The position numbers and the translations under genes are program-made. Below are positions 1,452 to 50,025 of a DNA stretch of 64,000 nt, piece after piece. Every line of letters begins with the position of its first letter. Position 1 is the first letter of the stretch. The stretch comes from an uncultured Eubacteriales bacterium (GTDB lineage Bacteria > Bacillota > Clostridia > Christensenellales > Aristaeellaceae). Location of the stretch: NCBI GenBank assembly GCA_902801765.1, contig CADCJO010000001.1, positions 37,935-101,934 on the forward strand. Direction: 5' to 3'. The notes beneath the pieces were generated by a model. The model did not search any database. It worked only from the letters and a program-made list of their open reading frames with translations, and was not told the DNA's origin.

Positions 1452-1552
1452 CAGAGAACAGAGTTCAGAGTACAGAGTGCAGTTTTATATAGTCAATCCC
1501 GGATATATTCGGAAGCGATTATGCCATATAATCTGAACTCTGTACTCTAAAG
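1452..1552. repeat. Heptad-arm hairpin element, copy A
   Basis: Left arm is (CAGAGAA)(CAGAGTT)(CAGAGTA)(CAGAGTG)CAG. Right arm ATCTGAACTCTGTACTCTAAAG is its inverted heptad array. 1467-1478 pairs with 1537-1548 (12 bp, plus 3 more) around a ~50-nt loop. The arms are near-identical to copy B at 11801-11905. Confidence 0.7.
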
Positions 1553-3356: not shown

Positions 3357-3360
3357 AACT

Positions 3361-3384
3361 CTACTGCCTACTGCCTATTGCCTG
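3361..3384. repeat. Solo heptad tandem array (CTACTGC)(CTACTGC)(CTATTGC)CTG
   Basis: Read directly, 5 nt after the NUDIX stop codon. No inverted partner was found within 150 bp. Confidence 0.6.
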
Positions 3385-5850: not shown

Positions 5851-5937
5851 GAGTTTTTTCTGGGGGAAACCGCTCTTTGCAACCAAAGAGCGGTTTCCCC
5901 CAGACCCCCTTCCGAGAAAGTTATAAAGGATAACTGA
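5851..5937 (-). repeat. REP-like ~85-bp palindromic element, copy 1 (reverse orientation)
   Basis: TTTTTTC-TGGGGGAAACCGCTCTTTG-caac-CAAAGAGCGGTTTCCCCCA-GACCCCCTTCCGAGAAAGTTATAAAGGATAA. Its reverse complement aligns with copies 2 and 3. Confidence 0.8.
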
Positions 5938-5977: not shown

Positions 5978-6060
5978 TAAAATCCCCTCTATGGCTTTCT
6001 TGGAGGGGGCCTGGGGGAACCATTCTTTGGCCTCCAAAGAATGGTTCCCCCAGAAAAAAT
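5978..6060 (+). repeat. REP-like ~85-bp palindromic element, copy 2
   Basis: ATCCCCTCTATGGCTTTCTTGGAGGGGGC-CTGGGGGAACCATTCTTTGG-cct-CCAAAGAATGGTTCCCCCAG-AAAAAA. It is head-to-head with copy 1, about 40 bp away. Confidence 0.8.
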
Positions 6061-7296: not shown

Positions 7297-7392
7297 GCGT
7301 ACAGCCTCCTTTTGTGCCGATATTGAATTATCCATCCGCTCTAATCATAGCATGTTTTTCTATAAATGGCAATACCCGATTTCAAAACAGGT

Positions 7393-8343
7393 TTATAGAA
7401 TTGACTCTTTTTCCAGTTCTTTCTTGAAAGCATCCAATTCTTCATGATTCCCCAGCACAAAGTGCTTCGGTTCAATTTCACACCAAACCGGTTGATCGAC
7501 GCTGTAATCATGGATAGATTCATCATAGATTACAGGCGGCTTGTCCTGCTTCAAATCCGGCGATGGTACAGGCACGGCGGACAGGAGCGCTTTGGTGTAA
7601 GCGTGGAGCGGATGACGGAACAGGGTTTCCGTATCGGCAAGCTCCATCAGCTGTCCCTTATGGATGACGGCAATGCGGTCGCAGATGAAGCGCATCACGG
7701 ACAGATCGTGGGAAATGAACAGGTAGGTTAAGCCCCGCTTCTGCTGCAAATCGGCCAGCAGGTTCAGCACCTGAGCGCGGATACTTACGTCGAGGGCAGA
7801 GATGGGCTCGTCGGCGATGATGAATTCCGGCTGCATGATTAGCGCCCGGGCGACGCCGATGCGCTGGCGCTGGCCGCCCGAAAACTCGTGCGGGAAGCGG
7901 CTGGCAAACTCGGGCAGCAGCCCCACGTCCAGCAACGCCTGGTGCACCATCTCCTGCCGCTGTTCTTTGGTTAAACCCTTGTGGCTGTTGTACAGGCCCT
8001 CGGAAACAATATAGTCCACCTTGGCCCGCTCGTTCAGAGAGGCCATGGGGTCCTGGAAGATCATTTGAATCTTCCGGGTAATTTCCCGGTCCAGCTCGTT
8101 GCTGATCTTGCCGTTGATCTTTTGCCCCTTGAAAATCACTTCGCCCCCGGCAGTTTCATAAATGCGGATTATGGCGCGGCCGATGGTGGTTTTGCCGCTG
8201 CCGGATTCGCCCACCAGACCGAAGGTTTCGCCGGGAAAAATATCAAAGCTGACGCCCTTTACCGCGTGAAAAGGCTTGCGGCGGGAACCGAAATCCACCT
8301 TCAAATCACGCACAGATAAAAGCGGCTGTTTTTGTTCGCTCAT
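7393..8343 (-). CDS. oppF: Oligopeptide ABC transporter ATP-binding protein
   Basis: Walker A GESGSGKT, signature [15 protein letters not shown], and an Opp-type C-terminal extension. Confidence 0.9.
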
Positions 8344-11800: not shown

Positions 11801-11905
11801 AGAGAACGAGTGTGCAGAGTTCAAAGTACAGAGTACAGATAATTATGATGATCACAAACGAGCGTATAGAAATTCAAACAAATCAATCTGTACTCTGTAC
11901 ACTTT
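11801..11905. repeat. Heptad-arm hairpin element, copy B (oppA-oppB spacer)
   Basis: Left arm is (CAGAGTT)(CAAAGTA)(CAGAGTA)CAGAT. 11826-11840 pairs perfectly (15 bp) with 11886-11900, with a 45-nt loop. The 24-nt core differs from copy A at 2 positions. Confidence 0.75.
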
Positions 11906-11910
11906 CAGCC

Positions 11911-13761
11911 TTACTCCGCCTTGTCGCGGGCTTCCGTGTAGGCGTCGTATGCGTCGTAGTAAGCGTCGGTGTCCATGTAGCCTTCCAGCTTGTACTGGCC
12001 CTTGTAGCGATCGGTGGAAATGCCGAAGGGTGCCATGGGGCCGGAGAAGGGATCGAGCAGGGACGCGGTATAGCCGCCGGAGCCATGGCCGAAGGGCATC
12101 ACGAACGCGTGCTGAATCAAATAGGCTTCCGCTTTGGCGAAGGCTTCATAGCGGGCGGGAATGTCGTTGGTGATGGCCTTGGCGGCGTCCACCAGCGCAT
12201 AGTATTCTTCCACCAGCGCGTTGCCGGATTTGTCCATAAAGTTGTACTTGTTGCCAGCGGTGAAGGGATCGGTGAAGGTTTCGGGGTCGGCGTAGTCGGG
12301 GCCCCAGTTGCAGTTCATCATGCCGTAAAGGCCGGTGCGGCGGGCGGTCAGGTAGCTGGTGGAGGGACCGGCTTCAATGACCACGTCGATGTAATCCTTG
12401 CCCAGCACGTCTTCCAGCTGCTGCTCCACGATCTGGGCTTCTTGGTCGGAGTTGTTGGCAGAGGCGTTGGGGTTGTACAGCAGCAGCACCTTGACGGGGA
12501 AAGTCGCGCCTGCTTCGGCCAATTCTTTCACGGCCAATTCCTTGAAGGAAAGGGCTGCTTCGACTGCCAGGGTGTCCACACTGGCGGCGGACAGGGCAGC
12601 GAGCTCGCCGATGTTGATGTAGTCCACACCGTCCACTTCGCAGAAGAAAGGCGGGGTAATGGTGTTATACAGCATCTTGTCGGGGTTTTCGGCGTCCAGC
12701 AGGGTCTTGGCCTTGATGCGGTTGAAGGCGTTGACGATGGACAGGCGGAAGTTTTCGTTGTTTACGGCGATCTTCCAGTTGTCCGGCTCATAAATGGCGT
12801 CGAATTGCGGATCAAAGTTGAAGGTGTAGAAATAGCTGTAATAGTCGGTATCGTAGCGGACGGGATGAATCTTCGCCGCCTTTTCCTCGTCGGCCAGCCA
12901 GTCGGCGGTCAGCTCGTTGCTCAGGGACGCGGAATCCACTTCGCCGCGCAGATAGAGTTCGGCGGACACGGTGGAAGCTTCCTTGTTGTACTTGGACACG
13001 ATCTCGTCAATGTGCACGTTCCCGGCATCCCAGTTCTTTTCGTTCTTGCTCAGCACGCGGATCTCCTGGGGCTTGAACTGGCTCAGGTAGTATGCGCCGC
13101 AGTAGAGCAGGGTGTCGTTGCCGGTGGCCAGGCCGAAGTTCTCGCCCTTTTCCAGCAGGAAGGGCTCATACACGGGCATGAAGTTGACGTAGGTCAGCAT
13201 GGACAGGAAGTAGGGCACGGGATGGGTGAGCGTATACTGGAGGGTATAGTCATCCAGGGCTTTAATGCCCACGGTGTCCCATTCCATGACGGGGGCGGGT
13301 TCAGCGCCTTCCTCGGGGGTGGCGGTTCCCTGGTAGTAGGCTTCCGCGCCTTCAATTACGCCGTACAGAATATCGGCGGTGGAGGAAGCGTTCTGGGCGT
13401 TGAGGATGTACTTGGCGGCGGCCACGAAGTCGTTGGCAGTGACGGGAGCCACCACTTCGTTATTGCCGTCCACCCAGCAGGCGTCCTGCCGCAGGGTGAA
13501 GGTCCAGGTCAGGCTGTCCTCGGAGTTTTCCCAGGCGATCGCCAGGGAAGGCTGCATGCGGCCATACATATCGTATTCCACCAGGGTGTCAATCAGGTTG
13601 GCGGCAATAGCGAATTCGTTGGTGGTGGAGGTGATGAGATAATTGAGCGTGGTCACTTCGCTGCTGTACAGCGAGGTATACGTGACCGGGTCTTCCGCAA
13701 CCGCACCGGCCATACCAAGCAGCATCGCCGCGCAAAGCAGCAGGGCAATCAGTTTCTTCAT
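11911..13761 (-). CDS. oppA: Peptide ABC transporter substrate-binding protein (family 5)
   Basis: Signal sequence MKKLIALLLCAAMLLGMAGAVA and a long SBP_bac_5-like body. Start chosen at ATG 13761 behind GGGAGA; the ORF track begins at 13788. Confidence 0.85.
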   Translation of the reverse strand: MKKLIALLLCAAMLLGMAGAVAEDPVTYTSLYSSEVTTLNYLITSTTNEFAIAANLIDTLVEYDMYGRMQPSLAIAWENSEDSLTWTFTLRQDACWVDGNNEVVAPVTANDFVAAAKYILNAQNASSTADILYGVIEGAEAYYQGTATPEEGAEPAPVMEWDTVGIKALDDYTLQYTLTHPVPYFLSMLTYVNFMPVYEPFLLEKGENFGLATGNDTLLYCGAYYLSQFKPQEIRVLSKNEKNWDAGNVHIDEIVSKYNKEASTVSAELYLRGEVDSASLSNELTADWLADEEKAAKIHPVRYDTDYYSYFYTFNFDPQFDAIYEPDNWKIAVNNENFRLSIVNAFNRIKAKTLLDAENPDKMLYNTITPPFFCEVDGVDYINIGELAALSAASVDTLAVEAALSFKELAVKELAEAGATFPVKVLLLYNPNASANNSDQEAQIVEQQLEDVLGKDYIDVVIEAGPSTSYLTARRTGLYGMMNCNWGPDYADPETFTDPFTAGNKYNFMDKSGNALVEEYYALVDAAKAITNDIPARYEAFAKAEAYLIQHAFVMPFGHGSGGYTASLLDPFSGPMAPFGISTDRYKGQYKLEGYMDTDAYYDAYDAYTEARDKAE

Positions 13762-14559: not shown

Positions 14560-14761
14560 TTCAGCATCTTCGCTTGCAGGGAACGGACGCGCCGAAACCG
14601 GGAGGCGCTTTCACTCCGTTTCTTCTCTCATCCAGACTGTACTGTCGGCATCGGAATTTCACCGAATCGGCTGAACGGAATCCATTCAGTTCGCGGGCTG
14701 TCACCGCCGGTAGGGAATTTCACCCGACCCCGAAGAAGCTTAGGTGGCTTGTGCAATTTTC
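14560..14761 (-). promoter_or_regulatory. FMN riboswitch (RFN element)
   Basis: Minus strand: CGGGGTCGGGTGAAATTCCCTACCGGCGGTGACAGCCCGCG ... GGTGAAATTCCGATGCCGACAGTACAGTCTGGATGAGAGAAG. There is no U-tract terminator. GCGCCTCCCGG can mask the AAGGAGG RBS, so control is probably translational. Confidence 0.9.
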
Positions 14762-49944: not shown

Positions 49945-50025
49945 AATTATCCCTTTACAGCTTTCTCGGAGGGGGACTGGGGGAACCGCTCTTTGGCTCC
50001 AAAGAGCGGTTCCCCCAGAAAAAAA
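49945..50025 (+). repeat. REP-like ~85-bp palindromic element, copy 3 (acpS-nnr spacer)
   Basis: TTATCCCTTTACAGCTTTCTCGGAGGGGGA-CTGGGGGAACCGCTCTTTGG-ct-CCAAAGAGCGGTTCCCCCAG-AAAAAAA. Confidence 0.8.

Follow-up and report, generated by a model that had tools for sequence, protein, structure and literature searches.

The stretch analyzed here, which we call the window, comprises 64,000 nucleotides of contig CADCJO010000001.1 (assembly GCA_902801765.1), from an uncultured Eubacteriales bacterium of the Aristaeellaceae. It carries three hairpin elements of about 100 bp, named copies A, B and C, whose arms are inverted arrays of tandem heptanucleotides (heptads). Copy A lies 3' of the terminator of an S1-domain gene and 5' of a PIG-L gene, and it occupies the entire spacer that precedes the latter. 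Copy B separates, on the minus strand, an oppA-like gene (SBP_bac_5) from the first permease gene, and copy C, also in a minus-strand operon, is found between rpsB and tsf. These gene contexts, which an earlier note on this DNA had given from the sequence alone, were confirmed by Pfam. The copies belong to a family of elements that is dispersed, intergenic and hairpin-forming, with subfamilies, vertical inheritance, gain and loss of whole elements, and recent multiplication within genomes. In the literature we found no account of heptad-stem hairpin repeats, or of inverted heptad arrays as a repeat family, and the family is apparently undescribed in bacteria.

The sequence details that the earlier note had described for the three copies were all borne out by direct reading, Tandem Repeats Finder (TRF), an inverted-repeat finder and folding (Table 1). 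Copies A and B, both of type 1, share a 24-nt core with two differences (CAGAGTTCAGAGTACAGAGTGCAG at 1459-1482 versus CAGAGTTCAAAGTACAGAGTACAG at 11815-11838), an AGAGAAC at the left edge and, in the right arm, AATCTG-NN-CTCTGTAC. Copy C, of type 2, spans 59055-59161 and is built on the unit pair AAGTTCN / NGAACTT. Period-7 arrays were delimited by TRF at 1452-1482, 11815-11839, 59055-59092 and 59132-59161. The inverted-repeat finder paired the arms in all three copies, with a perfect 15-nt inverted repeat in copy B (11826-11840 / 11886-11900). On both strands the three copies folded better than their dinucleotide shuffles, with minimum free energies (MFE) of -28 to -43 kcal/mol and z scores of -2.4 to -7.1. 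The motif CAGAGNNCAGAGNNCAG, searched at two mismatches or fewer, gave 10 matches in the window versus 1.28 expected, a number that none of 100 shuffles reached. Several pairing registers are indeed possible in each stem, and in register the seventh base, which is the variable one, mostly faces a mismatch. The loops of A and B had been called unrelated; this holds for their centres, which are not conserved, but not for their length, which is fixed (50 nt in A, 49 nt in B), nor for the interior ends, where A fits the family and B does so weakly.

Table 1. Parts of the heptad elements in the window and heptad types of the superfamily
Feature	Position	Sequence or size	Remarks
Copy A (type 1), 5' arm	1452-1482	CAGAGAA CAGAGTT CAGAGTA CAGAGTG CAG = 4.4 heptads of (C)AGAGTN	TRF, inverted-repeat finder
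Copy A, interior	1483-1532	50 nt; AT-rich family-type ends TTTTATATAGT ... CCATATAAT	Unconserved centre forms a small inner hairpin
Copy A, 3' arm	1533-1552	CTGAACT CTGTACT CTAAAG = CTGAACTCTGTACTCT	Pairs with 1464-1485, 86% complementary
Copy B (type 1), 5' arm, plus-strand reading	11801-11838	AGAGAAC GAGTGTG CAGAGTT CAAAGTA CAGAGTA CAG	
Copy B, interior	11839-11887	49 nt, AT-rich	Weak match to family interior ends
Copy B, 3' arm	11888-11905	CTGTACT CTGTACA CTTT	
Copy C (type 2), 5' arm, plus strand	59055-59093	(AAGTTCN)5, terminal AAGC	TRF, inverted-repeat finder
Copy C, interior	59094-59130	37 nt	16-nt internal duplication
Copy C, 3' arm	59131-59161	GCTT (AGAACTT)n	TRF, inverted-repeat finder
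Solo heptad array	3361-3383	CTACTGC CTACTGC CTATTGC CTG (x3.3)	Directly after the stop codon of a NUDIX gene
Type 1		AGAGTNC	Copies A and B; ~50-nt interior
Type 2		AAGTTCT	Copy C; arms end AAGC..GCTT; interiors 21-46 nt, unconserved
Type 3		TAGGGAT/TAGGCAN (TAGGNAN)	TAG every 7 nt
Other heptad types		AGGAGAT, GGAGGTA, GAGAGTT, GAGGAGT, GGAAAGT	
Types in a Cyclobacteriaceae MAG		GTACAGG, ACGATGT	

In all 64 kb, a purpose-written detector of 7-nt periodicity picked up no more than five heptad arrays: the left arms of copies A and B, the two arms of copy C, and a solo array that it placed at 3360-3384. The solo array is the type-3 unit TAGGCAN in reverse complement, a unit known as hairpin arms from related metagenome-assembled genomes (MAGs); no inverted partner was found within 140 nt of the array, which is therefore probably a half or decayed element. 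With regard to the gene upstream of copy A, its 3' end (1306-1387) has tandem repeats of 15-33 nt that give the protein a repetitive tail rich in Glu, Ala and Pro, and in related contigs the gene is a 701-aa LytB(IspH)-S1 fusion.

Distribution of the heptad elements

Species-representative genomes were scanned with an exact pattern, GTACAGAGTNCAG-N35-65-CTGNACTCTGTAC, taken from the two innermost heptads of each arm; about 0.03 matches to it are expected by chance. At least 117 genomic stretches with at least 129 elements were recovered. Among the matches listed, the majority belong to MAGs of uncultured rumen Clostridiales/Clostridia, with at least 32 loci in RUG13860, at least 20 in RUG13367, and 10-12 in each of RUG10975, S32M_St, RUG563 and RUG14052. 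Across orthologous stretches, blastn gave about 90% identity between the window and RUG14052, RUG13860 and RUG10975, which places the window in this clade. A few type-1 matches were located outside Clostridia, in Alloprevotella/Prevotella (Bacteroidota), Verrucomicrobiota, Acidobacteriota and Pirellulaceae (Planctomycetota), all with unrelated interiors; some of these contigs are short and could be mis-binned. A Terriglobales MAG showed at N the same alternation of A, T and G as the Clostridia.

A covariance model, R1, was trained on 90 elements, the window copies being excluded. It scored copy A at 70 bits (E ~1e-15; 1460-1555), copy B at 59 bits (11816-11912) and copy C at 32 bits (59061-59156), and with the filters off it found no further match in the 64 kb. 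No Rfam family matched the elements at gathering score; at E values up to 10, copies A and C gave only far sub-threshold matches to generic long hairpins (microRNA precursors). The blastn search of plasmid and phage collections gave zero matches to the elements, and two pattern matches were present in viral contigs, one of them duplicating a MAG locus. A metagenome scan with PGK, meant to cover loci A and B in relatives, gave 80 loci that are not syntenic to A or B, the closest of which carry no heptad hairpins; it thus served only as a negative control.

The earlier note had proposed a dispersed family rather than gene-specific signals, to be judged by a genome scan and a covariance model, and had counted a lack of additional members against it. 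This objection is decisively removed by the many members found. The reading as a dispersed family is strongly supported: besides the loci of the scan, an independent model matches A, B and C, copies are present or absent between close relatives, and near-identical copies occur on separate contigs of one MAG. Moreover, the window copies represent a wider superfamily. The flanks of the fetched loci contained 369 heptad arrays, of which 321 (87%) have an inverted partner within 140 nt, and at least eight different heptad sequences share one architecture. In 22 of 22 arrays that are neither type 1 nor type 2, the purine-rich/AGT arm is 5' and the ACT/pyrimidine arm 3'; in type 2 the AGTTCT arm came first in every case, and the corresponding count for type 1 is biased by the search pattern.

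Some elements contain, or are adjacent to, other palindromes. The type-1 element after pyrH in contigs L118-L121 and L123 has an interior of ~255 nt that encloses another palindromic repeat, GTCATCCCGA...TCGGGATGAC. A palindromic repeat of ~145 nt, TGTCATCCCGACCGAAGCGGAGG...CCTTCGCTCGGGATGACA, was observed at L118 4463-4790, in L119-L121 and L123, and further at L003 ~1990-2150, L077 ~7390-7540, L106 ~1330-1450 and L083 ~7770-7930, either nested within a type-1 interior or abutting heptad arrays.

Sequence rules of the type-1 element

All elements of the family begin with 2-6 heptads in tandem as the 5' arm, continue with an interior and close with the complementary heptads as the 3' arm. In type 1, once the heptads are trimmed, the interior measures 47-53 nt in about 100 of the 129 copies, most often 50. 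Conservation is seen in its AT-rich ends (..CAGAT.ATATAGT ... ACTATAT.AATCTG..), and its centre is conserved around GGAATCC in one subfamily and free elsewhere. Elements trimmed to three heptads per arm have a mean MFE of -38.6 kcal/mol, and a lone arm folds at only -2.2 to -2.5 kcal/mol. The interiors contribute about 3 kcal/mol of extra structure relative to shuffled interiors; thus, the whole element is an extended imperfect palindrome. Apart from AGAT/ATCT, the high AT content of the aligned interior ends leaves no crisp covarying pairs.

The arms are tandem heptads with purines at five of seven positions and, in types 1 and 2, without a GTAG head. At the variable position of the unit AGAGTNC, A accounts for 51%, T for 25%, G for 24% and C for 0.5% (4 of 766 units). 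Adjacent units carry the same N in 16% of the cases (38% expected), and N and its counterpart N' across the stem are complementary in 29% (~38% expected). Consequently, the in-register stem is made of 6-bp blocks that are usually broken at every seventh position, and the RNAalifold consensus left every seventh, variable, position unpaired.

This regularity bears on the suggestion of the earlier note, offered there as speculation, that the arms recall the sites of a ring-shaped RNA-binding regulator such as HutP. In its general form, this explanation sees the arms as serial sites to be bound by a protein with a 7-nt reading register (a HutP/TRAP-like ring, a cold-shock-domain protein or a nucleoid protein), and the copies as its regulon. 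The invariant CAGAGT core is strictly spaced at 7 nt, N is limited to A, T or G, and polarity is fixed in all types, all of which would suit such a protein. A conserved triplet at regular spacing, here CAG or TAG every 7 nt, is also what HutP and TRAP sites have, and the type-3 unit TAGGNAN, with its TAG every 7 nt, agrees with the spacing reported for HutP sites. In addition, CspB has been reported to bind heptamer repeats with one protein per unit (PMC4679880). However, HutP and TRAP sites are single-copy and single-stranded and go with one operon and one regulator gene, whereas the heptad arrays are paired in stems, highly repeated, of many types, polymorphic, and placed beside unrelated genes. 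Tens or more copies are found per genome, next to functionally unrelated housekeeping genes and with no strong strand bias relative to transcription. At least eight heptads coexist in the same genomes in one architecture, the putative single-strand sites are sequestered in the hairpin, and whole elements are gained and lost between strains like mobile DNA. No candidate protein was identified, although no regulator gene was looked for. The HutP-type regulator is therefore unsupported, and we consider binding-site arrays in general highly improbable.

Genomic position and turnover

In the Clostridiales loci, 128 of 144 hairpins are clear of predicted genes, and the 16 overlaps mostly resemble over-extended ORF (open reading frame) calls or starts. 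Where genes were called on both sides, 102 of 119 hairpins (86%) have co-directional flanking genes, in comparison with 72% of background spacers; divergent spacers are depleted (7% versus 14% of the background), and convergent ones are depleted too. The median position is ~19-28 nt past the upstream stop codon and ~45 nt ahead of the next start codon. Where two copies enclose a gene, it is an ordinary housekeeping one (SpoU methylase, SLT, aldo-keto reductase, DnaX, MMPL, GH28, RpiB and YceD).

This location could suggest ordinary transcription signals, namely intrinsic terminators, or promoters in the AT-rich interior. The interior ends resemble -10 boxes on both strands (ACTATATAAT beside the arm), copy A, which fills the spacer before the PIG-L gene, has TATAAT at 1527-1532, and a consensus scan gave weak 9/12 promoter-like matches in A and B. 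Nevertheless, the same scan showed no terminator-like site at any of the three window copies, no -35 element is properly spaced from the TATAAT-like ends, and the depletion between divergent genes is the opposite of what promoters would lead one to expect. After the stem there is no T-run on the sense strand (T fraction 0.375 versus 0.378 at the antisense equivalent), and the elements do not have the GC-rich stem plus sense-specific U-tract of an intrinsic terminator, a class in which we do not place them. Transcription signals are thus very unlikely to account for the family.

A different possibility is that the hairpins are selected cis-acting RNA stem-loops, intercistronic or in 3' untranslated regions, which shield the upstream mRNA against 3'-5' decay or serve as sites for double-strand-specific RNases, their dispersal being secondary. 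They would then set the expression ratio within operons, as the repetitive extragenic palindromic (REP) sequence does in malE-malF. The preference for co-directional genes at a short distance past the stop codon agrees with this, as do the very stable stems. Copy B lies where a binding-protein gene needs more expression than the permeases, and in L098 an element is likewise found 3' of oppA, with near-identical arms, even though oppA is only 72% identical. On the sense strand, G-U mismatches slightly outnumber A-C ones (74:51 at the interior ends, 39:32 at N), and the asymmetric interior is oriented 41:21 relative to gene direction. On the other hand, both biases are weak and no sense-specific U-tract accompanies them. 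What is conserved is the arm sequence rather than the pairing, with no compensatory variation, and the variable position pairs below chance. Copy A, moreover, is downstream of a conserved terminator, and the elements are dispensable at rpsB-tsf in close strains. We hold selection as RNA stem-loops to be a possible explanation of the family, though rather an unlikely one.

Strains do differ at the rpsB-tsf spacer. L118, L122 and L124 have 45 nt there and no element, the window and L126 have an element of copy C's type, and L127 has one of the AGGTAGG...CCTACCT type, with Tsf identical in all strains compared. In L126, a 96% identical strain, the right arm of copy C has 4 units instead of the 6 of the window, and the interior is 21-25 nt. 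At locus A, the element is present in the window, in RUG14052 (L099) and in RUG13860 (L100), with arms and position kept, an adjacent terminator ~95% identical, unit numbers of 4.4, 3 and at least 6, respectively, and interior centres that are nearly unrelated among the three species. Other orthologous pairs keep both element and interior, at 84-98% identity. Presence and absence were also observed elsewhere. The cggR-pgk spacer has a type-1 copy in L099 and none in the window, and L068 1733-1835 is a clean whole-element indel with respect to L031, with flanks ~88-94% identical. Overall, when ~90%-identical genomes were compared, about half of the mappable elements proved to be confined to one lineage. 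The comparison with relatives that the earlier note had called for thus found occupied sites (A, B) as well as polymorphic ones (rpsB-tsf, cggR-pgk, L068/L031).

In the pgk-tpi spacer, L099 (RUG14052) has a type-3 hairpin, while the window has GC-rich perfect palindromes of another kind, CTGGGGGAA(M)C(S)(Y)TCTTTGG / CCAAAGA..GGTTCCCCCAG. These have stems of 20-21 bp and loops of 2-4 nt and are found at 5854-5908 and 6005-6059, both in this spacer, and at 49977-50018, at ~50 kb; they resemble terminators or REP-like repeats.

In RUG13860, nine copies on nine different contigs have interiors 84-92% identical and share asymmetric outer flanks, their distal flanks being unrelated. Such near-identity at unlinked sites implies recent spread, that is, multiplication within the genome. 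These data are relevant to the proposal that each element originates locally, by slippage that favours 7-nt units plus intramolecular template switching that copies one arm to the other, so that the family resemblance reflects convergent or privileged heptads and not transposition. According to earlier work summarised in one paper (PMC4679880), heptanucleotides outnumber other long simple repeats in the majority of prokaryotic genomes, a fact explained there by slippage. The variation of unit number among orthologues, the many heptads in one architecture, the different heptad types at one site between strains, the occurrence of one heptad in five phyla with unrelated interiors, and the failure to find a transposase would all agree with a local origin. 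Against it stand the nine RUG13860 copies, the type-1 interior length and ends conserved in ~100 copies, and the clean whole-element indels. The shared interiors and flanks, the conserved interior ends and the clean indels argue for copying between sites, and a purely local origin is consequently improbable. Slippage probably explains the dynamics of the arms, not the dispersal.

Nature of the elements and comparison with known systems

We favour, with reasonable though not full confidence, the reading that the hairpins are dispersed non-coding foldback repeats, non-autonomous and similar to miniature inverted-repeat transposable elements (MITEs) or to REPINs. The copies look like selfish miniature DNA elements rather than gene-specific regulatory signals. 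The elements would be copied or moved in trans by a sequence-specific machinery that reads the arms. Across species and even phyla the arm sequence is kept and shows no compensatory drift, whereas the centre changes; this points to arms that are read, or to copies that homogenise each other. This combination of conserved arms and changing centre argues that selection for pairing alone is not the cause. Exchange between copies, or between the two arms, may keep the arms homogeneous, and replication slippage may alter the unit number, as the differences among orthologues indicate. The centres of palindromes are unstable, and the variable interior centre fits with this.

When transcribed, a copy would give a long stem of 6-bp blocks, usually broken at every seventh position. 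Within operons, as for copy B between oppA and oppB and copy C between rpsB and tsf, such a stem would most plausibly act as a generic intercistronic barrier or processing site, through which the mRNA segments before and after it could become independent in stability. It is plausible that B and C, as generic stable stems, probably influence mRNA decay or processing in this way. We regard any such effect as a side-effect or an occasional co-option rather than the raison d'etre of the family; copy C is dispensable in close strains, whose rpsB-tsf spacers are empty.

We searched for a partner that could mobilise the elements. The sequence examined amounts to ~1.8 Mb from fragmented MAGs. No autonomous insertion sequence (IS) or transposon with matching ends was found within the sampled loci, and the ORFs near solo arrays comprised a serine recombinase and housekeeping genes, with no transposase. 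A tblastn search with Escherichia coli RayT, a REP-associated tyrosine transposase (RAYT), detected one RAYT-like ORF, at L040 6910-7503 (197 aa, RUG13367). It carries an HUH-like motif, PDHVHLLL, and a YTYIDNNP motif, and its Pfam match to Y1_Tnp (E = 0.0075) is below the cut-off. The region L040 6862-7660 is in itself a classical REP/RAYT arrangement, with an IS200-type Y1 transposase-like gene, separate from the heptad elements. Given the incomplete sampled sequence, the negative result for a RAYT of the heptad elements is a weak one.

Several observations weigh against the foldback-repeat reading. The RAYT-like ORF of L040 is flanked by inverted GTAG-headed REPs (GTAGGGGCGGATATCATCCGCCC) and not by heptads. 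Between paired copies we found no transposase, the genes there being housekeeping ones, and in the sampled loci no long multi-copy repeats, although the fragmentation of the MAGs and the size of the sample limit both searches. Only one clean filled/empty pair is available (L068/L031), without an evident target-site duplication, and the other pairs are too diverged. At rpsB-tsf, flank identity shifts across the spacer (in L122, 99% on one side and 95% on the other), so recombination is involved; the gain or loss coincides with this breakpoint, and homologous recombination, instead of transposition, could therefore explain some of the polymorphism. That the oppA-oppB site is kept in distant relatives could reflect selection for an RNA function. 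Finally, a simple selfish-DNA model would not lead one to expect the fixed arm polarity, the exclusion of C at N, neighbouring units that avoid being identical, or an interior held at 50 nt.

These rules would be explained by a bolder reading, which we put forward as unlikely but worth stating: the elements would form a cross-phylum class made or moved by a machinery that works in a 7-nt register and reads an AGT/ACT-containing heptad. Candidates for it would be a transposase, a nuclease or a polymerase-associated activity. If true, it would account for the polarity, the rare C, the differing neighbours, the seventh-pair mismatch and the 50-nt interior, as well as for the presence of AGAGTNC in Clostridia, Bacteroidota, Verrucomicrobiota, Acidobacteriota and Planctomycetota. 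The mechanism could then be shared with the heptanucleotide repeats of cyanobacteria and Beggiatoaceae, and might bear on the frequency of heptanucleotide repeats in prokaryotes.

Among known systems, REPINs are the closest behavioural analogue. They have been described as two conserved inverted sequences in which spacer length and hairpin potential outweigh spacer sequence (PMC3116915), and the heptad elements also consist of inverted conserved sequences with a spacer, form hairpins, and are extragenic and present in many copies. Both are ~100 nt long, number tens to hundreds of copies, are often transcribed at gene ends, and have solo half-elements. They differ in that REP units are short imperfect palindromes with a GTAG/CGTC head, whereas heptad arms are purine-rich and do not fold on themselves. 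Furthermore, REPINs cluster around a RAYT gene, and here the sole RAYT-like gene found has REPs of the GTAG type.

With MITEs such as Correia, RUP and Nezha, the elements share small size, lack of coding capacity, terminal inverted repeats, dispersed intergenic copies, long RNA hairpins, presence or absence between strains, and nested insertions. Neither a target-site duplication nor an IS whose ends would make it the parent came to light in the sampled loci. The inverted repeats of the heptad elements, unlike those of classical bacterial MITEs, are themselves made of repeats, at a period of 7 nt and in variable unit number. The foldback (FB) transposons of eukaryotes also have long inverted arms of short degenerate tandem units, with variable unit number and middle. 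They are of kilobase scale and have other repeat units, so the likeness is one of architecture only.

Heptanucleotide tandem repeats are abundant in cyanobacteria and Beggiatoaceae, as direct arrays (PMC4679880, PMC4692102); in the Guaymas genome only 1 inverted set was present among 170 heptamer arrays (PMC4679880). Like the elements described here, the short tandemly repeated repetitive (STRR) and TAACTGA repeats known from Beggiatoaceae, cyanobacteria and Bacteroidetes are heptamers repeated in tandem between genes, in high numbers and with a patchy spread across phyla, and many of their units contain ACT/AGT (PMC4679880). However, those arrays are almost always direct and have a preferred orientation just upstream of start codons, whereas the heptad arrays are 87% inverted-paired and nearer the upstream stop codon; the units CCCCAGT, TTGGTCA, CAACAGT and TAACTGA are absent from our heptad types. 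Other candidates were considered and dropped: Chi or uptake-sequence arrays, Type III restriction sites (CAGAG), primase initiation triplets, integron attC sites, invertible promoters, and H-DNA/triplex motifs (PMC4666352).

The repeats occupy a sizeable share of the intergenic spacers in this uncultured rumen group of Clostridia and break short-read assemblies; contig L128, for instance, terminates at copy B. Model R1 can now be used for masking and annotating them. The architecture of inverted arrays of tandem heptads, together with its strict sequence rules, calls for a mechanistic explanation, and the many independent heptad types make the superfamily suitable for studies of how two arms evolve in concert. 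The copies at oppA-oppB and rpsB-tsf are natural strain-polymorphic insertions of an interrupted stem of ~30 bp, usable for tests of mRNA processing and expression ratio.

Some minor features of the window may be mentioned. Downstream of pyrH (57435-57485), a short palindrome occurs twice, CTCCCCTGATAGGGGAG / CTCCCCTATTAGGGGAG, and similar CCCCT..AGGGG hairpins are terminator-like elements beside heptad arrays in L041 and L106. Rfam matched at gathering score a flavin mononucleotide (FMN) riboswitch (14616-14741, minus strand), a small signal recognition particle (SRP) RNA (57141-57239, plus strand) and a tRNA (63124-63205, plus strand). Relative to the tsf-pyrH-SRP RNA block, an alpha-amylase gene is inverted between the window (55426-57300; also L122) and L118 (4800-6622; L118-L121), and the breakpoints of this inversion lie in repeat-rich spacers.

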